Made by a program: the position numbers and the translations under genes. The notes under the pieces were generated by a model, which was given only the letters and a program-made list of their open reading frames with translations, was not told the DNA's origin and searched no databases. Positions 8,919 to 48,146 of a stretch of DNA of 52,828 nucleotides are shown here, piece after piece. Numbering within the stretch: the first letter of the stretch is position 1; each line of letters starts with the position of its first letter. The stretch is from a virus (Duplodnaviria > Caudoviricetes), in the IMG/VR virus record IMGVR_UViG_3300021449_000498, positions 1 to 52,828 of that record, one strand, 5' to 3'.

Positions 8919-9604
8919 CGGGAACCGAATTCGGCGGTGTAGATTTCTCCCAGATAGAAGTACACGGGCAAGCGGGGCACGGCCCCGACGGCGACCCATT
9001 GCCCCGCGTCGTGGAATACCCTGGGTGGCTAAACATAGCCATGCGTTCGTTGGAATACGGAAACATCGTCAAATACTACGAGAACTACCCTCGCGGGCCG
9101 CAAATGCTTTCAGGCGTTTTTTCAGCAGCTATTGCGCCGTGCAGCCCTGCGGACGTGCAAGCCATGAAGCCGGGCCTACCGAGTGCCCTCGAATACGGCG
9201 TACTGCTGGCTTCGGACTTACTCGAACGCGACCGCCACGCCGCGGAAGCCCAAGGCGGGCGGCTCGCAAAAGCCGACGACGACCTGGAAGACGTAGTTCG
9301 CGACGACAGTATGTTTACGGCGCACCAACAGGATGAGAAAAAGCGCACCGACATAGGCGAGGGGTTAGACGGCGACTTAGCGGACTTTCTCTATGGGTAC
9401 GTAGGGAATTACGGCACTCCGCCGCTTGAAGTGTACCGTCTCACAATGGGTGAAATCGACGCTATTCGGTACGGACACAAGCGCGCGGACGAGAGGGCAA
9501 ATAAAAAGAACGAAAGCGGCGGTAGTAGTGGTACGACGGGTAAAACCACGGGTAATCAGGGAGACCGAATAGGCGGCCGGCGGAACTTGCCTGATAGCCA
9601 TTAA
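8909..9604 (+). CDS. Frameshift extension of the tail chaperone (gpT-like part of gpGT)
   Basis: -1 frame reads GKLTGTEFGGVDFSQ...LPRVVEY; C-terminal GTPPLEVYRLTMGEI resembles gpT-like motifs. Confidence 0.78.
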   Translation, partial: GKLTGTEFGGVDFSQIEVHGQAGHGPDGDPLPRVVEYPGWLNIAMRSLEYGNIVKYYENYPRGPQMLSGVFSAAIAPCSPADVQAMKPGLPSALEYGVLLASDLLERDRHAAEAQGGRLAKADDDLEDVVRDDSMFTAHQQDEKKRTDIGEGLDGDLADFLYGYVGNYGTPPLEVYRLTMGEIDAIRYGHKRADERANKKNESGGSSGTTGKTTGNQGDRIGGRRNLPDSH

Positions 9605-12600: not shown

Positions 12601-14394
12601 TTTATCGGGTCCATCGTATCGAGTATGTCGCGAATCGGTCCCCTGATTGCCCGCGTGGGTAGTCTCGGGTCTACTATCGGGCTTCTTACCAACCCTATCG
12701 GAATTGCAGTCGCCGCGGTCGCTGGCTTGTGGTTGGCCTGGAAGACGAACTTCATGAACATCCAAAACAAAACGCAACAGGTTTTGGATGCTATCACCGC
12801 CGCTTTCAACGGGAATTCGACCGAACTAAAGGGTATCGTAAAGCGGACACTACAAGCGATTCAAGACTTTTGGAATAACAAGCTGAAACCGGTTATCCAA
12901 ACGACCAAGACCGTACTGGATAAGGTCGGGCAAGTCTTTATCGACACCCTCCAGTTCATTAACACGAACATCGTGCAGCCCGCGTTACAAGGTCTCTTAG
13001 ACCTGTGGGAAACCCACGGTGAGGAACTGAAAACGTCGGTCAATCAGCTTTTCAATTTCCTCAAAGGTATTTTCAAGGTCGGCGCGGGGGCTATCCTGAA
13101 AATATGGCAGCGTTGGGGAGACGAAATTCAGGCCGTGGCGAAGTTCGTAATCGACGCTGTGGGTAGTGTTATCAAGACGGGCCTGGATGTCATTCTTACC
13201 TCCTTCAACGTTATTACGGACTTAATGGCCGGCAAATGGAAAAGCGCCCTGAATAAAATACTCGACTTAGGCAAGCGAATCTTCGGCGGGATTATCGACT
13301 TCGTGAAAAAATGGGGCGGGAAACTTGTCGATTATCTCGTCACGATGCTATCCGACGCTTTACAAGCGTTCATAGACTGGGGGCAAGAAATCATCTTCGG
13401 CTCGCTAATCCCCGATATATTTAGCGCGATTCTTGATTTCATCAAGAACTGGGGCGGTGACTTGCTTTCGACCCTCGGTGACGCCCTCCAGCAGGGGTTA
13501 GATGCTATCGTTTCTTTCACCGAAGACGCCCTTTCAACCGTCCAAAAGTGGGGCGGAAACGTCATAACAGCCGTGCAAACAATGGGCGGCGAATTCGTCT
13601 CTGCTATCAAGACGCTGGCTACGGAAGCCTTCAACCGGATTTCCCAGTTTATCAGCAACGCCTTGTCGGCAATTCAGAAATGGGGCGGAAACGTCGTGAA
13701 AGCCGTTCGCACAATGGGCGGCGACGTAGTTACAGCTATCAAGAATATGGTGTCTGACGTTCTTGGCAAACTCGGCGAACTGTTCCGAAAAGGAAAATCC
13801 AAAGTCAAAAGTCTGAAAAAGAAAGTCGTCGGCAAAATCGAATCGATGAGAACCAAGGTATTCAATGCTGTGAAAGGCATGGTTGACGACGTACTCGGCA
13901 AAATAGACGAACTGAAAAGCGGCGGCGTCGAGAAGGTAAAAGGAATGTATGAATCCGTGGTCGGAGGGTCCATCATTCCCGACATGCGGAAAGAAAGCGT
14001 CGCGGAAATGGAACGCATGAAAGGCGAAGGGGTGGGCGAACTGGCAAATCTCGCCCAAGGCGGTATGTCCGAAATGGACCGACTACACAGCGGGGCCGGG
14101 CGGGCGGCCGCGCGAATGAAGAAAGGCGTCGCAAAACAAATGTCCGGTCTTAGCGGCGCGGTCGGCAAAGAAATGGCGCGCGCCGGAGACGTAGCCGAAA
14201 GCGAAATGGCACGCATGGCACGCCTCACCGAAGACGCCCCAGGCGTAGCAGCAGCGGCGGCGGCCGGCGGCGGTACTGTGAATATCACGAACATCGAAGT
14301 GAACGCCGAAGTCAATGCGAACAGCTACGAAGAGGGCGGCGACGCCGCGCGGGCCATGGAGGACGAATTCGACAGCTACTTGTCGAAAAACTAA
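9694..14394 (+). CDS. Tail tape measure protein (TP901-type core)
   Basis: 1566 aa, Ala/Gly-rich helical; AVDFESQMAEVQK core; periodic Trp repeats. Confidence 0.95.
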   Translation: MFGGGSGTNVIETKLTASGADAVAAEFSQAAASSKKFKTAVAGLGTGLAAVSAGGIAKATQAAVDFESQMAEVQKVTSEAVADEMSGKIQQMAKDIPLTTKKLASLTEQAGRFGVEGTKNIKEFTRNVAKMATATDLTADEAGTAFAKLSTLTKTPIPQTENLGSAINELSNTAAASSSEITDTMLRASGTLTQLGMSTTDIVALSGAMNEVSSSARRAGSGLRRVGQEIKNPKKVSDFAAALGITSQKFRSLRDNSPIKLFKMMAKEMANNTEKGKALRKQFSTYSRKTLSSLGQNIEGVNDALETSSKAFEENTSLQREFAIQSKTAANQLKLLKNSITVVAQESGGVFLPAFAAIISVIKDGINAFSDFNSALNGVPGAVVLVSGVIGGLTTAFTALQGTIAASSIYTLGSVFLAVLGPVSAVAAAVAALAAAWQKDFAGIRSATTRVAKSVKKYIGGIATFAFDELSGKVDAAKGVFKGFVSGIEGPISRFVQLVSGKMVGAVQGFASYMEPTIVALSTDWENHGTAVSRAIEGGYGAIAGVVKTALGAFRSVVDAATAGATEAWNRHGNMVTRYLKIGYTAALKAVKAVTGAIGSAVANVTARINALWQKHGAGLQDSIGNPYRMIRTTVLGVLDTLFGGIVDVAQKMRVLWYEHGSAVKKAITTAYNAVGGVALAALRELAAGVQSVLTRVRGVWNKHGTAVQNTVTTAYKKLKTIALNAVGQVVTTVKTSLTNVTKLWNKHGTAVKQAATQAYQKAVSLMQGRVQAFVTVVTGTLNRATSLWNRHGKQVKTSIQQAVSSLSPYQAAVASFIPTLAAWATKTGVVTSSLSGLTAGISTGVLPSVSSLGTLITGTLVPALGVKLVGAAKSVVTTLATFAGKTNIAKQAALVFGQKVTVLGGIVSNLKTKASAAGSVLKTVLTAGLTAAKGAVTRLLGPLAGPLFTAFSKLSGIVKRVAGVISSKFIGSIVSSMSRIGPLIARVGSLGSTIGLLTNPIGIAVAAVAGLWLAWKTNFMNIQNKTQQVLDAITAAFNGNSTELKGIVKRTLQAIQDFWNNKLKPVIQTTKTVLDKVGQVFIDTLQFINTNIVQPALQGLLDLWETHGEELKTSVNQLFNFLKGIFKVGAGAILKIWQRWGDEIQAVAKFVIDAVGSVIKTGLDVILTSFNVITDLMAGKWKSALNKILDLGKRIFGGIIDFVKKWGGKLVDYLVTMLSDALQAFIDWGQEIIFGSLIPDIFSAILDFIKNWGGDLLSTLGDALQQGLDAIVSFTEDALSTVQKWGGNVITAVQTMGGEFVSAIKTLATEAFNRISQFISNALSAIQKWGGNVVKAVRTMGGDVVTAIKNMVSDVLGKLGELFRKGKSKVKSLKKKVVGKIESMRTKVFNAVKGMVDDVLGKIDELKSGGVEKVKGMYESVVGGSIIPDMRKESVAEMERMKGEGVGELANLAQGGMSEMDRLHSGAGRAAARMKKGVAKQMSGLSGAVGKEMARAGDVAESEMARMARLTEDAPGVAAAAAAGGGTVNITNIEVNAEVNANSYEEGGDAARAMEDEFDSYLSKN
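11266..12072 (+). repeat. Seven 132-bp (44-aa) W-x-x-H-G repeats in the tape measure gene
   Basis: Trp codons at 11266, 11398, 11530, 11662, 11794, 11926 and 12058. Confidence 0.9.
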
Positions 14395-23808: not shown

Positions 23809-26800
23809 ATGCCGGAAACGAAAACTCGCGAAGAACGGATTGCGGCGTTCCAAGAGTTTCACGAATTCGCAAAGGAAACCGAGGAAATCGAAGACGAAGA
23901 CCGCCGCTACGTTATCAGCTTTGGACCTTCTGATTTCCCAAACTGGCATGAGCCGTCCGGGCGCGCGACGGCCTCGCAAGTCGAGAAGAAAATTCGCAAT
24001 ACGGACCCCGAAGCATATCTGGCAATTGCCTACATGTTTCAGGCCGGCGACCGGATGCTTGCCGTAGACGAAGACGAGCCTGTTTTTCGCGAGCGAAACG
24101 GCGAAGACTTTCAGCCCACTTTCCGAATTCGGTCCCGTTCGGGCGGCACCCACCTGTATTACACACTTCCCGACGAAGACACCAATTTCCCACACGACAG
24201 TCTCCAGGTTCCCGAGACCGTAGAAAAGCCCGACGAAATGAAGGGCGACGCGAATACGGTTGCTGATTTTCGGGGCGCTCAAAATCAAAAAATCATGTAT
24301 ATTCCGGGGTCCCACCGCCCGGACCCGAAAGGTGGGTACGATGGACCCGGCGCTGGCTACTACACGATAACCAATAACAGGCCGGCCGCAGACTTCGATA
24401 TGCGGCAAATGCCTCGTTCGTGGCTGTATATGTTTGCCGAAAACGAGCGAATCGCCCGCGTTCGCAAAGAAGAGCGCAACGAACGCCTGCGGGGCAACGC
24501 CGAAAATTACGACCCCGACGAAACCGACGAAGACACAAGCAACTTCTTTGACGACAAAGCCGGGCGGCATATCATGCAGAACCTCGGAGTGGATGTAAGC
24601 GGCGAGAAATTTGCTCATCCGATTCACGGGTCTACCACCGGAAAGAACGCTCAATTCGACCCGGACACTTGTACCCTCACCTGCTGGCGGCATAACGTTG
24701 CCCTTGGGCCGGCACAATTGTTAGCACTCGACAGCGAAATGTACGACGATGATAGCGGGTGCGCTTTGCTCGGAAAGCCCCACGCAACCGGCGGCGAATC
24801 CGCCGCCAGTTCCGCAGGCCCCTCCGACTATATAGCCAACCCCAAGGCTATGTTTCACGCATGGAAACGCGGCGTGGAAGTTAATGCGGTAAACGGTACC
24901 GAAATTCCCTACAAGGCGCTCGTATGGGTCGCAATCGAACACGTCAACACGGACCCGCACAGCCGGCGCGACCCCCCGGACCCGCATGACTACGACGAAG
25001 ACGACCCCGAAAAGCGGCTCCAGGCCGTCGTCTTCAACGAAGCCCTCGCCGCAGTTCGCGACTACTACGGCGTCGAACCGAACCGCGACGAAGTTGACCC
25101 CTCCGAAGACATCGAAACCGACGACGTAGTAGCCAGCAAACCCTTTAAACAAAACGGATTAGACGTTTACAAAAACCAAACCCTCCAGGGAATCGCGCGG
25201 TCGGGCAAATCCTACGATATGATTGAAGCCGTCTACGAAGCCCGCAAACAAGGCTTCGAAGGCCGTGTAGGATACCTCCTACCGTCACACCAAGAAGGCA
25301 AATCGACCTGGGATAAAGCCGCCAAGTTCGGCCTGGCGGCCGCTTACGTCGCGGGCAAAACCAAAGCAAAAGAACGGTGGGAAGTGAACACGGCTTCGGA
25401 CGAATACCCCGACGATACAGCCCTTACGCCGTGGGACGCCGCCGAACAGATAGACGAAGACCAAAACCAGTATCAGGCTAACATCGAAGGCGCGAAAGAA
25501 AGCGACTTCGTAGTTCTCCCCCCCGAAAAGTTAGACGATGTTGACCCGCATGATTTCGACCTGCTGATTACCTCCGAAGAGGCCGTTCTGTCGCGTCTGC
25601 TGTCCGAAGAACTGTGTGTTTTCAAAGCGAAACGCGGCGGCGGCCCCGCCGAAGATAACTCCGCTCACTTCCTCAGACTCGGCGATAAAGTTCTCGGGGC
25701 GGCGGAAAAAGTCAAAGACAAAATCGAGGACTTAGAGCGAACCGACGCGGTACACGATGATATGGTACAGGCCGCCGATTTGCTGTTAGACATAGACGAG
25801 ATAACCCGAAGCACGAATTTCGACGTATGGAACGACCTGGAGGGTAACGAAGACGCGGACGAAGACACCCCGGACCCGTTCGACCGCCTTGTCGAGACGA
25901 TTCGCGAACGCGCGCGCGAAGTCGAACCGAAAGCGAACTTTCAGGAAACCCGCACCCGCTTGAAAAACTACACACCCGGGCACGCGGAGAAACTGATTAA
26001 CGCACTCTATCACGACAGCAGCGAAGGGCGCGACGAGGACCTAACGAACGAGTTAGACGGCGTATATGACTACGGAAACGGAAACGAGAAAGCAATCTAC
26101 CTTGTCGGAGACGTAGACCGCGTGTTTGCGGACTTGCCAGACGATTGTAATTTCTGGTTCGCGGGCAACGACCTTCCGGCAATGCAGAACGCACACGAAC
26201 TGATTCACGGCGAGGTACCCGAGGCTATGCGGCATGATAGCGAATTTACCCCCGTCACGCGCTGTATGCGAGTGATTCGATACAGCGGCGGCGACACTCC
26301 GAAACAGCAAACCGGAGACATCCGAAAGACGATTGAAAACCTACAAGGCGCTGGCTACGGCGACCGTCCGAAATACGCCGGCCTGCTGTTTGACGGGTCC
26401 GGGGCGAGGACAGCACAATTAGCGTCAAAAACCCCGTCTACCTATACCCCAGGCACCGATTCACTGGACGGCGTAAAGAGCCAGCAAGTCAACCGGAACA
26501 GCGTTGCCATGCCCGCGAACAGCCGATTCGCCGAAGGGGTTGACCTACAAGAATACGACTTCGGCGCGGTCCACTCCGCTCAATTCGCGACCCCGCGGCA
26601 ATCGTACCTCGGTGAGGAAACCGGCGAGTGGACGATGAAATTCAGTGAGCTAATCCGGGCGACTCAAAACGCGGCGCTTCGGGCGTCGAACGTGCCCCAC
26701 AGCGGCGACCCGAACGGACGGACGCTAAAAGACGGAACCCAGGTCGCAAACCCCGCCGGGACAGCCATAGACGAAGACGAAGAAGACGGCACGGTGCCGA

Positions 26801-42826: not shown

Positions 42827-44311
42827 ATGGTTACTAAAGAACAGCTACCCTCTTCAACGCAAGTAGTCGAACGCATACACGAACAGCGTGGCGACGACAT
42901 ACAATTAGACCCCCACAGTCAGGACGCGGCGGACTTCCTTAGAAATCTGCGAAAGCTTCCTCGTTCACAGCGCGTAAAAATCCTGTTCGGTGCGGACCCG
43001 CATGACTATCAGGACTTAATGCTGGACGTTAATCTCTGGCGCGACCAAACGCGCTGTGTAGCCCCTATCGGCCGGCGCGGCGGCAAGACCTACACCGGCG
43101 GCCTGATAATCGCAGACTCGCCGCTTGCCCCTGCTATTGCCGAAGACACCGTGGTCGCTGCACCCTACCAACGAACCGCGGACGAAATGTTTACCGAAGC
43201 AATGGAGTGGTATGAGAAAAGCCCGTGGCCCGAATTCTTCGGTCTCGAAACAAACGAATTCTTCGGAATCGAAGTCGATAACGCCCGGACCTACGAATTC
43301 GATACGGGTGCCCGGGTAATGTCTCGAACGACCGGCAAGAAAGGCAAACAAATCAGGGGTATCGGCCCCCAGGTCATGGTTGTAGACGAAGCCGCGTTCG
43401 TCAACCAAAGAAAAATCTACACCGAAGTTATCGAACCGTTCTTTGCGACGTTCACGACCGAGGGGCAACGGTCGGAATTCTACCTGTATAGTACCACGAA
43501 CGGGCAATCCGGGTACTTCTACGAGAAGTGGATTGCCGCCTCGGAAGACGCCGAAAGCAAGTGGTTCGGGTTCCACTGGCCCTCGTACATCAACCCCATG
43601 ATTAGCGACGAGTGGCTTGATGGAAAGCGCGCCGAACTTGATAGTATTTCCTTCGCCAAGGAGTATCTGGCCGAATTCAAAGACGAAGGCAACGTGTTTA
43701 TTCCACATTCCGACGCGAAGAAATGCCAACCGCGGACGGTCGGCGAGACGTTTGGATTGACCCCGCCTATCTATGCCGGTCTCGACGTAGCGCGCGGCGG
43801 CGGCGACCTTACAGCGTTGGTCTTAGTAGACGAAACCGGGCGGGTAGAAGTCTTCGATACGTTTAGCGAGAACAGCATACCTGAAATCGTCGGACTTATG
43901 CGCCGCGTGAACGACGAACGGGGCTACGGCAATCCGCAGTCTATCGAGGAAATCTACGTCGAAAGCAACGGTGTCGGCGGCGGCGCTGTGGATTTCGGCG
44001 CGGAATACGACATCTACAATATCGGCGAAATCAAGTCTTCAACCCAAACGAAACACGAATTCTATAGCAACCTCAAACGGCGTATTGAAGAACAGTCGCT
44101 TACGCTTCCGTATGACAAGACACTAATGGGGCAACTGACGGACCTGGACTACACCCATACACCGAACGGGTATCTGAAAGTTAGTCACCGGGACCCCAAG
44201 CGGGGCGACGACCTACCGGACGCTTTAGCGTTGGCTTGCTATGCAGCAGGTGGGTACGCACCTACTTCGCGACCGTATAACACGTCGAGTTATCAGCCCG
44301 TAATCGGTTAG
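42827..44311 (+). CDS. terL: Terminase large subunit
   Basis: Walker A GRRGGKT, Walker B VVDEAAF, STT coupling motif; nuclease GLDVARGGGD and DDLPDALAL. Confidence 0.95.
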   Translation: MVTKEQLPSSTQVVERIHEQRGDDIQLDPHSQDAADFLRNLRKLPRSQRVKILFGADPHDYQDLMLDVNLWRDQTRCVAPIGRRGGKTYTGGLIIADSPLAPAIAEDTVVAAPYQRTADEMFTEAMEWYEKSPWPEFFGLETNEFFGIEVDNARTYEFDTGARVMSRTTGKKGKQIRGIGPQVMVVDEAAFVNQRKIYTEVIEPFFATFTTEGQRSEFYLYSTTNGQSGYFYEKWIAASEDAESKWFGFHWPSYINPMISDEWLDGKRAELDSISFAKEYLAEFKDEGNVFIPHSDAKKCQPRTVGETFGLTPPIYAGLDVARGGGDLTALVLVDETGRVEVFDTFSENSIPEIVGLMRRVNDERGYGNPQSIEEIYVESNGVGGGAVDFGAEYDIYNIGEIKSSTQTKHEFYSNLKRRIEEQSLTLPYDKTLMGQLTDLDYTHTPNGYLKVSHRDPKRGDDLPDALALACYAAGGYAPTSRPYNTSSYQPVIG

Positions 44312-45219
44312 TCGGAAGCGCGCGGCGCTTCCGGGGGTTCCGGTGGGTCGTATAGCAGTATGTCTTCCCCCCGCCACGTTTCCGGCGGGCAATCCGGCCC
44401 CGAATACGTCCGGTCGGAAAACTGTTCCTGCGGCGCGAAGTCTTCAGATTCGGGGCGTGGTAGCGTTTCGTCCCATTTATAATGAAACCCCGGCGGCGGC
44501 TCTCCCATATAATTTAGCAGTTCTTGTGTTTCTTCTACTGAAAACCACGCCCCACCCCTGGGGGTAATAGTAGGGGAAAACCCCACATTTTCAAACATGT
44601 TTTTCATTTTTTCAAGATTTTGTTTTTCATTTTCAAATACTATCGCAGCATGTGGTTTTTCTCTTTCTTTCACGATTAAGTTACCATCTCCCGCAAACCA
44701 ATGTTTAATAACAACCGGATTTAATTTGATAGTATTAGGGAAAGTGCGCTGTCCAGTTTCATACCAGTGTTTATACATTATTTTAAATAAGGGAGTTTTA
44801 AGTGTTTTAAAACGATATATGTCACTGTAGTTCTTTTCTTTTGCCTGGGGGGAAAACCCCGTCTTTCTTGCGTGTTTAGCGGATTCTTTAGCTGTTTTAC
44901 TAAAACGGACACCTTTTCCTACGACTGGATAAAAAAGTCTTTCTAAAAAAAGTAAATAAGCTTTAGACTTTGAATACATGTTAACTGTCATATTAAACCT
45001 GTTTCTCCCCACGTTTCCGTCACCCAAAAGTAAGCCTGTGGCTAAATCTATTTGAAAGTTAGACATTTTTGGATAATTGCAGGTTTTCAACCAGTGGAAC
45101 CCGAATTTCTCAAAACGTTTTCCACAAACCGGACACGGCGACCGTCCATCATCTTCGTCTTGTTCGGCTTCGAACTGTTCGCTTCCAAGCGTAGCCTGAA
45201 AACGGTTTTCAGCAGACAT
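44308..45219 (-). CDS. Free-standing LAGLIDADG-type homing endonuclease
   Basis: ATGLLLGDG and KHWFAGDG helices; N-terminal CPVCG; AT-rich core. Confidence 0.88.
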   Translation of the reverse strand: MSAENRFQATLGSEQFEAEQDEDDGRSPCPVCGKRFEKFGFHWLKTCNYPKMSNFQIDLATGLLLGDGNVGRNRFNMTVNMYSKSKAYLLFLERLFYPVVGKGVRFSKTAKESAKHARKTGFSPQAKEKNYSDIYRFKTLKTPLFKIMYKHWYETGQRTFPNTIKLNPVVIKHWFAGDGNLIVKEREKPHAAIVFENEKQNLEKMKNMFENVGFSPTITPRGGAWFSVEETQELLNYMGEPPPGFHYKWDETLPRPESEDFAPQEQFSDRTYSGPDCPPETWRGEDILLYDPPEPPEAPRASD

Positions 45220-45306: not shown

Positions 45307-47139
45307 ATGGACCTTACGGATGAAATTCGCGGCGTCTACGATACTACCCGCGCGGCTCTCGCGCGCGACAGCGAAGTCTTAGGCGGAGACCCGATTCCAC
45401 AAACCATTAGCGGCAATGGCGGCCTTGGCGGTATGTTAAGCGGCTCCGGGCAAGTGCGGCGGATTCGCCCGGACAAGAACCAAACCCGTCTCTATCGCGA
45501 AATATACCGCCATAATCCGTATGTGAACGCCGGCATTGACCTGCGGGCCGGCGAAGTAGTGCGCCCGGGGCCGCGAATCACAAGCGACGATGAGAAGCTT
45601 ACCGAAGCCCTCGAAACCTGGAGCGAACAATGCACCATTTACGCGGGCGAGTACGACCAACCACTGACACCGCAACTGTGGAACGACGCCCGCGGCTTCG
45701 ATATGGACGGCACCGTGACGCTTGAACACATGTATGACGACCCTGCGGAACCTGCTACCTTTTCGGGCTTTCAGACAGTCGATTCGCTCACACTCGATAT
45801 GCTATGCTACCCGAATACCTCGCGTCTGATTCGCCCCGGAGACAGCAGCGGCCGGGTGCCGAAAGAAACGCCGAAGAATGCGCGCGGGCAATGGGCGGCC
45901 TACGTCCAAAACCTCGGGGGCGGGGCGAGCGAAGTGCAGCGCCGCAAAGCGCAATCGTCCCAACGGACCCGAGACGTAGCTTCGGGCAACCGAAGCGAAA
46001 CTGGGGCCGGCAAGCCTACGGAACCGGACGGGACCGTACCCCTTTCCCAGGATGATGTTACGAAAATGGTGCGCAATCCTATGCTGGATACGCCGCTTAC
46101 GAGCGGAAACAGTAACCGCGGAAGTGGAAAAGCCGGTCAAACCCGGGGGGTTTCCCTCATTGAACCCATTTCCTCCGAAGCTATCCGGGTCCAAAATCGT
46201 AAAGACGACCACAACGCCGTCTTACAGAACCTCGCGTACCCGCGCGTGGTCGTGAAATTCAATCAGGTAGAATTGCCGACGGGGGATACCCTGCAATGGG
46301 AAACGAACCAAATGCAGGCGTTTATCAAGACCCTCCGACAGCGAGGAACGGGACGCGACGGGTCCGAATCGTGGCGCGAAAGCCGGCGTGAGGAAAGCAA
46401 AGAAGCCGACAGCTACGGTGAGGACAGCAGTACGGACTATTCGGGCACGAATACCGAAGCGCCCGAATTCAACAGCCCCGGCGGTATCCTCGGTGCGCCG
46501 CCGGGTGTCGAAATCGAGTGGTACACCCCCGACCTTCCCGACATCAACCCAAGTATCCAAATGTCAATCAATACTATCTTCTCGGGAATGAACGTGCCCA
46601 AGGCCTACGTCGGTTTCGGTGACGACCTGAATCGAGACGTAACCGAACCGCGCGTAGAACAGTTCGACCGCGACGTGCGGCGAATCCGCAGTCATATTAG
46701 CTATTCCTACACCCAAATCTTCCGCAAAAAAGCGCGATACCTGTTGGACCGCGGCGTGGTCGCCGGCCCCGAACCGGGAAGCGAAGCCTACGACAGCCTC
46801 ATCGAAAGCGTCGAATTTGCTATCGAGTCCGACGACGATGTAAGTCCGCTACAAGATTCGGACTTCGATGCTAAGAAGTTCTTAGCCTATATGCAGGCCT
46901 GGAAGGTCTACGTTTCGTCGGGCGTGGACGCCTACCTTCCGCCGGAACGTCTGATTGAGAAGGATTTGGGCATGGAAACGTCGGAGCTTGAAGAAGAGTT
47001 AGAAAACGCGTCTGAAATCTTCCAAAATGCCGACGGCGGGCTGAATATGGAAGAAACCGGCGCGCCCCAGGGCGGTGGCACTCCGGTTTCCGACCGAGTG
47101 GACGGAAGCCAGCGCGAGGATGAAAACCAAAACGACTAA
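45307..47139 (+). CDS. Portal protein
   Basis: 610 aa after TerL; YRHNPYVNAGID, RGVSLIEPI and SGMNVPKAYVG portal-like motifs. Confidence 0.82.
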   Translation: MDLTDEIRGVYDTTRAALARDSEVLGGDPIPQTISGNGGLGGMLSGSGQVRRIRPDKNQTRLYREIYRHNPYVNAGIDLRAGEVVRPGPRITSDDEKLTEALETWSEQCTIYAGEYDQPLTPQLWNDARGFDMDGTVTLEHMYDDPAEPATFSGFQTVDSLTLDMLCYPNTSRLIRPGDSSGRVPKETPKNARGQWAAYVQNLGGGASEVQRRKAQSSQRTRDVASGNRSETGAGKPTEPDGTVPLSQDDVTKMVRNPMLDTPLTSGNSNRGSGKAGQTRGVSLIEPISSEAIRVQNRKDDHNAVLQNLAYPRVVVKFNQVELPTGDTLQWETNQMQAFIKTLRQRGTGRDGSESWRESRREESKEADSYGEDSSTDYSGTNTEAPEFNSPGGILGAPPGVEIEWYTPDLPDINPSIQMSINTIFSGMNVPKAYVGFGDDLNRDVTEPRVEQFDRDVRRIRSHISYSYTQIFRKKARYLLDRGVVAGPEPGSEAYDSLIESVEFAIESDDDVSPLQDSDFDAKKFLAYMQAWKVYVSSGVDAYLPPERLIEKDLGMETSELEEELENASEIFQNADGGLNMEETGAPQGGGTPVSDRVDGSQREDENQND

Positions 47140-47171
47140 AAAGAAAGCGGGACCATTTTCAGGTCCCACCT

Positions 47172-47297
47172 ATGCCAGGAAATCAGAACCTCGAATGTTT
47201 CGTGTGTAACGACGGCGGAACCCCACAGCCCGCGGATTATGGCTGTGGCGTGGATTGTGCAGAGTGCGGCAATACTATTCTTGCCTGCGGGGAGTAA
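47172..47297 (+). CDS. 41-aa Cys-rich zinc-finger microprotein
   Basis: Hand translation MPGNQNLECFVCNDGGTPQPADYGCGVDCAECGNTILACGE. Confidence 0.7.
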   Translation: MPGNQNLECFVCNDGGTPQPADYGCGVDCAECGNTILACGE

Positions 47298-47354
47298 ATC
47301 AGAAGCGACGCCGGAGCGAAAGCTTTTTTACACGCGACCCAGTTAGGTAGAAAT

Positions 47355-47450
47355 GCCGCTGCGTGTGATACCACGCGGTCGGCTCCGCGGGCTTGGTTAC
47401 CCCGCGTCACCTCCTTCACAGGGTCGTAAGGCCTGGGAGTGGGAATCGGC
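47355..47450 (+). ncRNA. Candidate structured small RNA 3 (multi-stem, GNRA loop, anti-SD-like tract)
   Basis: Promoter GCGAAAGCTTTTTTA at 47316-47330; stems GCGTG/CACGC, CGCGGG/CCCGCG, CTCC..CAGG-GTAA-CCTG..GGAG; pyrimidine-rich tail. Confidence 0.55.
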
Positions 47451-47531
47451 GCTTTCCTCGTCGGTTCTCGCTTCCGCGCGCTTCGTGCAAACTCCTAACA
47501 CTTATATTCAGTAGACGCGGCACCGGTTTCT

Positions 47532-47819
47532 ATGTCGCCACAAACACCCGGCGGACCCTCGGTACCCGGCACCATTGACCCCTGGGAAAACTCGAAATGG
47601 AAAGGCCTGCGGCCCGAAGTGAAAGGCAAACTCGTCTATTGCCCCTACTGTCAAACAGCCAGCGTTCTCGGGAATTTCAACTTTGCCTGCATGTTCATGC
47701 CCGCGCTAAAAGACGAGAACGGCGCGTTTTCGTACAAAGGTGCCGACGGCGAGTGTCCTGAATGTGACCGCTACGTTAGGCTTAAGGACACCGAGGACGT
47801 GGAAACAAGCGGAGTCTAA
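47532..47819 (+). CDS. Zinc-finger protein
   Basis: CPYC...CPEC; CTTATA box upstream. Confidence 0.72.
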   Translation: MSPQTPGGPSVPGTIDPWENSKWKGLRPEVKGKLVYCPYCQTASVLGNFNFACMFMPALKDENGAFSYKGADGECPECDRYVRLKDTEDVETSGV

Positions 47820-47822
47820 CGC

Positions 47823-48146
47823 ATGACAAAAACTGTCTCGGTTACCCTATACGATAGGGAAGACGAAGACGACGAACAAGAGCTGAAAGAACGGAAAGAA
47901 AGAAACAGAAACAGTTTTCCCCCACACTTCGTTTTACCGCGAGACGAACGATTCGTAGCAGTCGGGCAAACCGTAGCGACTGAAAGCATCAGAAACAACG
48001 AACTGCTAACGGATAAAATGATAACAGTCGTGAAAGCCGCCCGAAGTCCCGAAGACGCGGTTCAAGACGCCGCTATGGAATTTTCTGACCGGACGTTTGG
48101 ATACGCTCGAAGCGTCACCTACGAAAACCTGGAGAAAGAAGTATGA
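47823..48146 (+). CDS. Hypothetical protein
   Basis: 107-aa acidic ORF, tightly packed with neighbours. Confidence 0.65.
   Translation: MTKTVSVTLYDREDEDDEQELKERKERNRNSFPPHFVLPRDERFVAVGQTVATESIRNNELLTDKMITVVKAARSPEDAVQDAAMEFSDRTFGYARSVTYENLEKEV

Follow-up and report, generated by a model that had tools for sequence, protein, structure and literature searches.

The 52,828-nt virus record IMGVR_UViG_3300021449_000498 (Duplodnaviria; Caudoviricetes), analysed here over its whole length and called the window below, belongs to a tailed haloarchaeal virus, has its DNA present in halite metagenome runs and carries a lineage-specific 179-nt insert directly upstream of a gene encoding a 95-aa zinc (Zn)-ribbon protein. 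We propose that the insert is a structured RNA on the + strand, most likely the 5' leader of a longer ribbon messenger RNA (mRNA) rather than a free noncoding RNA (ncRNA); this reading, which rests on sequence and on folding models, we hold at a probability of roughly 0.4. The evidence that carries it consists of the insertion itself, two promoter-like boxes, the strand-specific folding and the noncoding character of the insert. An earlier sequence-only reading had placed at 47355-47450 a free-standing viral ncRNA with a strong promoter, three hairpins and a tract matching the 3' end of 16S rRNA. Its view of a noncoding, structured + strand RNA stands, while a free-standing ncRNA is unsupported, since no terminator-like site is present. 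The positions of all features are collected in Table 1.

The insertion and its two promoter-like boxes

The comparison covers three relatives, all of them viral contigs: the loci L001, L003 (on the complete 63.9-kb genome G001) and L005. Queries of viral contigs with the portal, ribbon, CxxC and terminase sequences gave just these three close ones; in one such search 1 of 21 loci was close and the remaining 20 were at 24-27% identity, and no relatives were found among genome contigs and metagenome contigs. In each of the three relatives, a box resembling a transcription factor B recognition element (BRE) and a TATA element lies about 25 nt upstream of the leaderless ATG of the Zn-ribbon gene (GCGAAGCTTTTTACA, about 25 nt ahead of the ribbon ATGCC, in L001; CGAAACTTTTTCA in L005). 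The window has a box of this kind, P1, which consists of the BRE-like GCGAAAG and the TATA-like CTTTTTTACA and lies about 25 nt upstream of an ATG at 47353. P1 is nearly identical, base for base, to the L001 box, and an ATGCC follows it at an equal distance, as in L001 and L003. The Zn-ribbon protein of the window is 38-42% identical to the products of the open reading frames (ORFs) downstream of the promoter in the three relatives and has a full-length N-terminus; its gene begins at 47532, 24 nt downstream of a second TATA-like box, P2 (CTTATATT), from which it would again be leaderless. Because P1 matches the L001 box and the full-length N-terminus at 47532 has a TATA-like box of its own, 47353-47531 is an insertion at the ancestral start codon of the Zn-ribbon gene.

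The spacing of both boxes was judged by eye, that of P1 being like that of other genes of the window. Of the strong promoter claimed by the sequence-only reading, the BRE/TATA-type box, the spacing to the ATG that is usual in this virus and a counterpart in the relatives are in place, and its activity is predicted. The T6 run of P1 could also end an upstream transcript. Throughout the window, the proteins are acidic and TATA-like boxes lie about 24-30 nt upstream of many start codons (by eye, uncounted), which together form the pattern of leaderless haloarchaeal genes.

No second copy of the insert was found in the window or in the relatives' loci. Its DNA gave no blastn match among phages and plasmids, and the ribbon protein gave no tblastn match among phages. 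Neither terminal inverted repeats nor a target duplication was found at its ends, which therefore do not resemble those of a miniature inverted-repeat transposable element. Contigs of three runs, all from one study, have the same arrangement, without a joint across the insert. Within the insert there is a weak direct repeat (47379-47397 and 47468-47486; 79% identity, 89-nt spacing), and both copies lead into a small hairpin and then into a CUCCU word (UCACCUCCUU and AAACUCCUAA, respectively); growth of the insert by duplication of a hairpin-plus-CUCCU unit is hinted at. The insert was also considered as an inverted copy of a relative's gap, and this was set aside as unproven: a 20-nt hairpin match to L001 (19/20, one gap) had an insignificant expectation value (E) of 2.6.

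The ATG at 47353 opens a 53-codon ORF with a composition outside the proteome, as the sequence-only reading had cautioned. The frame contains 7 R+K versus 2 D+E and is net basic in an acidic proteome; its net charge was scored as -0.094 per residue versus a minimum of -0.035 in 43 genes, and its codon score was -0.033 per codon versus 0.114-0.707 in the 43 genes used. It has no Pfam match and no counterpart in the three relatives (tblastx), that is, it is not conserved. Searched with phmmer against 1.84 billion proteins, the 53-aa frame matched two entries, both dubious. The first is a repeat artefact of 5162 aa; the second, P0002 (whole-library E 1.2e-4; 19/39 identities), is an unnamed singleton with internal repeats, and its only relative, P0003, is similarly repetitive. 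P0002 and P0003 are on NCBI/ENA contigs of 81.5 and 167 kb, and tblastn searches following this lead found nothing among plasmids and nothing among viral contigs, and an atlas search gave no usable match. The two proteins may result from read-through of dispersed repeats in DNA, or may resemble the frame through composition, and even if P0002 were homologous the tract would be absent from it. A real leaderless basic micro-protein is very unlikely in our view. Its ATG does stand at the leaderless-start position downstream of P1, the frame is open for 53 codons and the P0002 match has the E value given above; set against these are a codon score below that of every one of the 43 genes, the basic charge, the missing counterparts and Pfam match, and the repetitive nature of both database matches. 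The frame looks noncoding and is the ancestral ATG fused to inserted sequence.

Strand-specific folding and the anti-Shine-Dalgarno-like tract

Fold z-scores were calculated against 200 shuffles per segment. Extended to the next gene (182 nt), the insert folded on the + strand with -74.0 kcal/mol (z -2.78; 2 of 200 shuffles as good), compared with -64.3 kcal/mol (z -1.23) for the insert on the - strand. Five hairpins were predicted, and these include all three of the sequence-only reading; hairpin 1 and the GUAA hairpin were borne out, while hairpin 2 was weak. The GCCG/CGGC closing stem that had been suggested appeared in no predicted fold. The 96-nt interval did not behave as a unit (z -1.33; 16/200): the unit extends to about 47531, and the strongest hairpin, hairpin 4, is outside that interval. 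Hairpin 4 has zero mismatches and 6 of its 18 pairs are G.U on the + strand (counted from the fold), so it would exist as + strand RNA only; on the - strand the same bases gave -8.3 kcal/mol (z -0.15; 85/200). It ranked about 7th in stability among distinct 45-nt hairpins (35,190 windows, both strands). Among local 45-nt hairpins in the window, those at 24776-24820 (- strand, -35.6 kcal/mol) and 9224-9270 (both strands, about -28 kcal/mol) are the most stable.

The models point to a structured RNA on the + strand, and a function at the RNA level is moderately supported. A search of the whole window with 4227 Rfam models gave no match at gathering score. Within 47100-47700 and at E <=10 there were two sub-threshold matches to small nucleolar RNAs (E 1.5 and 1.9), neither on the + strand of the element, and no match to an rRNA model; ARAGORN found no transfer RNA or transfer-messenger RNA gene in the window, and no ligand- or protein-binding RNA family of Rfam matched the insert. 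The insert is outside every named family tried and fits the generic class of structured 5' leaders or small regulatory RNAs.

Directly downstream of hairpin 2 lies the tract TCACCTCCTT (UCACCUCCUU as RNA), and the anti-Shine-Dalgarno (anti-SD)-like match noticed earlier proved to be exact. Its first 8 nt (UCACCUCC) are the exact complement of GGAGGUGA, which the accessible part of PMC3986360 uses as the extended SD motif for Haloferax volcanii. On either strand, 200 shuffles of the window give an expectation of 0.06 occurrences of the exact 10-mer per shuffle, and the 7-mer CACCTCC occurs here and nowhere else on both strands of the window (expected 4.56, standard deviation 2.16). In shuffles of the 266 nt of portal-to-ribbon noncoding DNA, the 8-mer core appeared in 17/5000 (0.3%). 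The likeness to the 3' end of 16S rRNA is confined to the tract, in keeping with the lack of an rRNA model match at E <=10. A further candidate, TTACCTCCTT at 13196, is inside a 1566-aa ORF and was discarded as irrelevant.

The sequence-only reading had warned that the tract can pair internally. This is so in the 96-nt fold, where the tract pairs with GGGAGUGG, and in an RNA ending at 47450 the mean unpaired probability of the tract is 0.38. It no longer holds once hairpin 4 takes up GGGAGUGGG, the tract's only internal partner, which leaves the tract predicted to be single-stranded between hairpins 2 and 3; with RNA 3' ends at 47495-47514 the mean unpaired probability is 0.93-0.97.

No + strand terminator-like site was found in 47000-47900, and 47353-47531 contains no T-run of at least 4. 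Since no terminator lies between the insert and the next gene, a 5' leader is likelier than a free RNA. What marks a 5' leader, namely a promoter upstream, the same strand and no terminator before the gene, can be read from the sequence here; what marks an antisense small RNA (sRNA), namely a defined 3' end or terminator and a seed and structure kept in homologues, was not found. According to the leader reading, the insertion at the start codon would have separated the ancestral P1 from the Zn-ribbon gene. P2, inside the 3' end of the insert, would now drive the gene and give the usual leaderless mRNA, and P1, still promoter-shaped, would give a second, longer + strand transcript that reads through into the gene. 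The first ~180 nt of the P1 transcript would fold into the five hairpins. During synthesis, the tract would first pair with GGGAGUGG and would be freed once hairpin 4 forms and captures GGGAGUGGG, so that UCACCUCCUU would be exposed between hairpins 2 and 3. The exposed UCACCUCCUU could then act as a seed pairing with GGAGG-type purine tracts, and the leader may possibly be processed to a small RNA.

Several points weigh against the leader reading. Transcription from P1, the RNA ends, the read-through, the exposure of the tract in the cell and the pairing targets are all deduced from sequence, and of the three runs of one study that contain window DNA none is recorded as RNA. The element is in one genome only, and a 204-nt contig of a second sample spans just 47460-47663. 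The sequence-only reading had staked itself on the tract and structure being kept in homologues, and both are missing at the matching site in 3/3 relatives; the likeness of the insert to the relatives' noncoding gaps is not significant (best result, 23/300 shuffles at least as good). Similarly stable hairpins are also found inside coding regions, hairpin 2 and the 96-nt interval fold no better than shuffles, and in longer model transcripts the unpaired probability of the tract is 0.44-0.69. Haloarchaea normally translate a leaderless RNA from an AUG at its 5' end, so ribosomes on the 53-codon frame, which ends 17 nt upstream of the Zn-ribbon start, could unfold the structure. Finally, the 8-mer that recurs in the relatives (described below) is on the other strand with respect to the genes and in an unrelated sequence context, and it is therefore no demonstration that the window tract is conserved as RNA.

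The absence from all three relatives is also what a neutral scar would give. It is possible, if doubtful, that the 179 nt were left by recombination or by a small mobile element, that P2 arose or came along with them, that the hairpins reflect this origin and that the tract is coincidental. A single lineage carries the element, no homology to the relatives' gaps can be detected, another lineage-specific insertion (the LAGLIDADG gene) is nearby, and the translated frame is weakly similar to two repetitive ORFs with the look of dispersed-repeat read-through. A scar is harder to reconcile with the lack of terminal inverted repeats, of a target duplication and of a second copy. Moreover, the 6 non-Watson-Crick pairs of hairpin 4 are all G.U on the sense strand, an outcome of about 1/64 if either way were equally likely, and the 8-mer, rare as it is in shuffles, has its complement recurring in all three relatives.

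The virus itself offers no GGAGG-type purine tracts as partners and has no genes led by a strong SD. The + strand of the window is without GGAGGTG (expected 2.65; probability of zero 0.09), and among 18 closely spaced genes the best upstream SD match was 5 nt long for 1 gene and 4 nt for 6, while 11 had none. For H. volcanii, the accessible part of PMC3986360 reports that the SD mechanism is inoperative at 5' untranslated regions (5'-UTRs), that an 8-nt SD at a 5'-UTR repressed translation tenfold and that SD motifs are enriched upstream of distal operon genes. The reported inactivity of SD at 5'-UTRs narrows the possible decoy targets to internal operon genes.

These data bear on the proposal of the sequence-only reading that a free-standing small ncRNA mimics the 3' end of 16S rRNA, titrates host SD sequences and so favours the viral leaderless mRNAs, which we consider improbable. 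The tract is the exact complement of GGAGGUGA, is predicted to be exposed and lies directly 3' of a hairpin, loosely like helix 45 plus the 16S 3' tail; the viral + strand is also without GGAGGTG, and SD matches of only 4-5 nt lie upstream of 7/18 distal genes. Against this, no terminator marks a small RNA, the element is not conserved in the relatives, no Rfam model, including those for rRNA, matches at E <=10, and the host would offer few targets if, as the accessible part of PMC3986360 reports, SD does not drive initiation at H. volcanii 5'-UTRs. A role in packaging had also been suggested, and nothing points to packaging. No precedent for a virus-encoded anti-SD RNA was found in the literature, which is not proof of absence. 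Strand-specific halite metatranscriptome libraries exist (PMC7002113), and the sRNA lists of that paper, of which part was accessible, might include the locus.

A complementary word in the related viruses

Between the portal and CxxC genes, the relatives have noncoding gaps of about 500 nt (L001), 250 nt (L003) and 760 nt (L005), compared with 32 nt for the window. Each of these gaps contains, exactly once and on the gene-sense strand, AGGAGGTG, which is the window tract's reverse complement; the chance of the word is 0.4-1.1% in each, and it lies 8 nt (L005) and 23 nt (L003) downstream of the portal stop codon. Apart from this word the gaps align poorly (significant blocks are common to L001 and L005, and the other pairs are borderline), so an 8-9-mer kept in them suggests constraint, and to judge from these sequences an SD-type word seems to matter in this virus group. 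The relation between the word in the window and that in the relatives may be one of common descent, convergence or chance (0.3%). In folds of ±70 nt around the word, the gene-sense strand folds better in the window, L003 and L005, and the two strands are about equal in L001.

The (A)AGGAGGUG of the relatives agrees with the extended SD motif of haloarchaea at 7/8 positions; unlike the SD motif, their word is without a start codon 3-7 nt downstream. For want of such a start codon, and with the frames from its own GTG giving unrelated peptides, AGGAGGTG was rejected as a ribosome-binding site. The complete relative genome has just one further copy of AGGAGGTG, which is inside a 277-aa ORF and was rejected as a second element.

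The gaps of the relatives share further words: AAGGAGGTG or TAGGAGGTG occurs once in each, GACACCGATT and TATGATCGGA each occur once in L001 and twice in L005, and GGATTTCCACGC is present in L003 and L005. They also contain internal TATA-like boxes. These long gaps fold strongly and look like unannotated RNA genes or regulatory DNA. On the gene-sense strand of L001, 5840-5872 consists of GATCACCTTC, 5 nt and then GGGGGTGGGG, a predicted 8-bp hairpin in which an anti-SD-like word is paired with a G-rich partner about 100 nt upstream of the L001 copy of AGGAGGTG; it resembles the window tract plus GGGAGTGGGA, a likeness without statistical support.

A signal at the DNA level would be a different account of the shared word: AAGGAGGTG would be a protein-binding site, for example for the adjacent small zinc-finger proteins, and would work in either orientation, hence its inversion in the window. 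The 8-mer indeed occurs once in the portal-to-ribbon noncoding DNA of 4/4 genomes (on the + strand in three and on the - strand in the window), two Zn-binding mini-proteins flank the region in all four, and other short conserved words such as GACACCGATT, TATGATCGGA and GGATTTCCACGC are expected of regulatory DNA. We nevertheless find this account distinctly unlikely: the word is a single copy with no dyad or repeat, its distance to the promoters varies, the strand-specific G.U hairpin is left unexplained, and the relatives' other conserved words are missing from the window.

A more speculative idea, to which we give a slim chance, is that the SD-type or anti-SD word itself is a regulatory RNA signal in leaderless halite haloviruses. 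The relatives' AAGGAGGUG, in untranslated RNA after the portal gene, might serve as a site for the 3' end of the ribosome or as a sponge. The window's UCACCUCCUU, on a structured RNA, might serve as a decoy of the 16S 3' end that titrates the SD-type tracts of host operon mRNAs or of transcripts from co-infecting relatives, and the virus's own SD-free leaderless genes would be untouched.

Gene neighbourhood and comparison with known systems

Table 1. Positions of the insert, its predicted hairpins, the flanking genes and the corresponding gaps of the relatives
Feature	Locus	Position	Strand	Remarks
Insert, lineage-specific; predicted structured RNA element, 179 nt	window	47353-47531	+	not present in L001, L003 and L005 between the promoter and the ribbon gene
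P1, putative promoter	window	47316-47332	+	spacing to ATG by eye
P2, putative promoter	window	47501-47508	+	spacing by eye
Hairpin 1	window	47355-47383	+	-17.9 kcal/mol, z -3.46, 1/200
Hairpin 2	window	47386-47406	+	6 bp, 9-nt loop; -10.1 kcal/mol, z -1.43, 20/200
Anti-SD-like tract	window	47407-47416	+	exact match
8-mer as CACCTCCT	window	47408		17/5000 shuffles
Hairpin 3, GUAA tetraloop	window	47421-47434	+	-6.1 kcal/mol, z -2.05, 9/200
Hairpin 4	window	47434-47476	+	18 bp; -26.8 kcal/mol, z -5.06, 0/200
Hairpin 5, then AAACUCCUAA	window	47476-47488	+	5 bp; z -1.77, 15/200; within internal direct repeat
53-codon ORF	window	47353-47514 (TAG 47512-47514)	+	starts at ancestral start codon; judged noncoding or accidental
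Terminase gene	window	42827-44311		
LAGLIDADG endonuclease gene	window	44308-45219	-	Pfam PF03161, E 1.1e-13
Portal gene	window	45307-47139	+	tblastn to ChaoS9 and HGTV-1 portals
CxxC mini-protein gene, 41 aa, four cysteines	window	47172-47297	+	tblastx conservation
Gap between CxxC and Zn-ribbon genes	window			234 nt
Zn-ribbon gene, 95 aa	window	47532-47819	+	putatively served by P2, formerly by P1
Portal-CxxC gap	L001	5768-6264		fold z -2.79
Portal-CxxC gap	L003	2567-2817		fold z -3.75, 0/200 shuffles
Portal-CxxC gap	L005	2034-2795		fold z -1.72
AGGAGGTG	L001	5952		8-mer on either strand in 53/5000 shuffles
AGGAGGTG	L003	2590		19/5000 shuffles
AGGAGGTG	L005	2042		37/5000 shuffles

The insert lies in a module of head genes. 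The portal protein gave tblastn matches to four records from two viruses (ChaoS9 and HGTV-1) at 20.6-22.8% identity and is 57-59% identical to the portal ORFs of L001, L003 and L005. The ORF of the CxxC mini-protein is the sole ORF of the region that is conserved across the four genomes (tblastx), and more head genes, including one for a MuF-like protein, follow the Zn-ribbon gene. The LAGLIDADG gene sits between the terminase and portal genes, which in the complete relative are 47 nt apart (terminase at 1978-3444 of L008, portal from 3492). As the complete relative is without it, this free-standing endonuclease gene is a second lineage-specific insertion in the module. The 32-nt gap between the portal stop and the CxxC start is filled by a 10-bp hairpin (GGGACC...GGTCCC core, 47145-47171), which scores as terminator-like on the - strand.

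The gene order of terminase, portal, small CxxC protein and MuF-like head protein is common to ChaoS9 and the window, and in both the gene for the CxxC-motif protein directly follows the portal gene. In ChaoS9, however, the genes overlap without a noncoding gap, whereas the group of the window has noncoding stretches here, 179 nt long in the window and 250-760 nt in the relatives.

Should the RNA be produced and its tract be active, the virus would encode a copy of the ribosome's mRNA-binding tail in a host group that mostly translates leaderless mRNAs. This would offer a way to test in which manner viruses of this kind bias translation and which role SD-type words have outside haloarchaeal start sites. 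Read more soberly, the locus would be a clean natural case of an insertion through which a leaderless gene became a unit with two promoters and a long, structured leader. It also draws attention to a conserved SD-like word, so far unexplained, in noncoding DNA downstream of the portal gene in the three relatives.

A known class of small RNAs covers ribosome-binding sites by means of C/U-rich seeds; examples are the C-rich-motif sRNAs of Firmicutes and Methanosarcina sRNA162. The insert shares with them a short pyrimidine tract that is complementary to GGAGG and predicted to be single-stranded between hairpins, with a promoter-like box of its own upstream. It differs from them in having no terminator and being probably a leader, in not being conserved in relatives, and in being encoded by a virus of a host group that, in the accessible part of PMC3986360, is reported to be without SD function at 5'-UTRs. 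Two further known arrangements bear comparison, structured leaders that include an upstream ORF and tandem-promoter genes. Unlike known structured leaders, the insert matches no ligand- or protein-binding family, and its arrangement stems from a recent insertion and is not conserved. Like these systems, it has two promoter-like boxes 179 nt apart on the same strand and a short ORF, and its predicted folds compete in the manner of structured leaders, the pairing of the tract with GGGAGUGG in the 96-nt fold giving way to hairpin 4 in longer RNAs.

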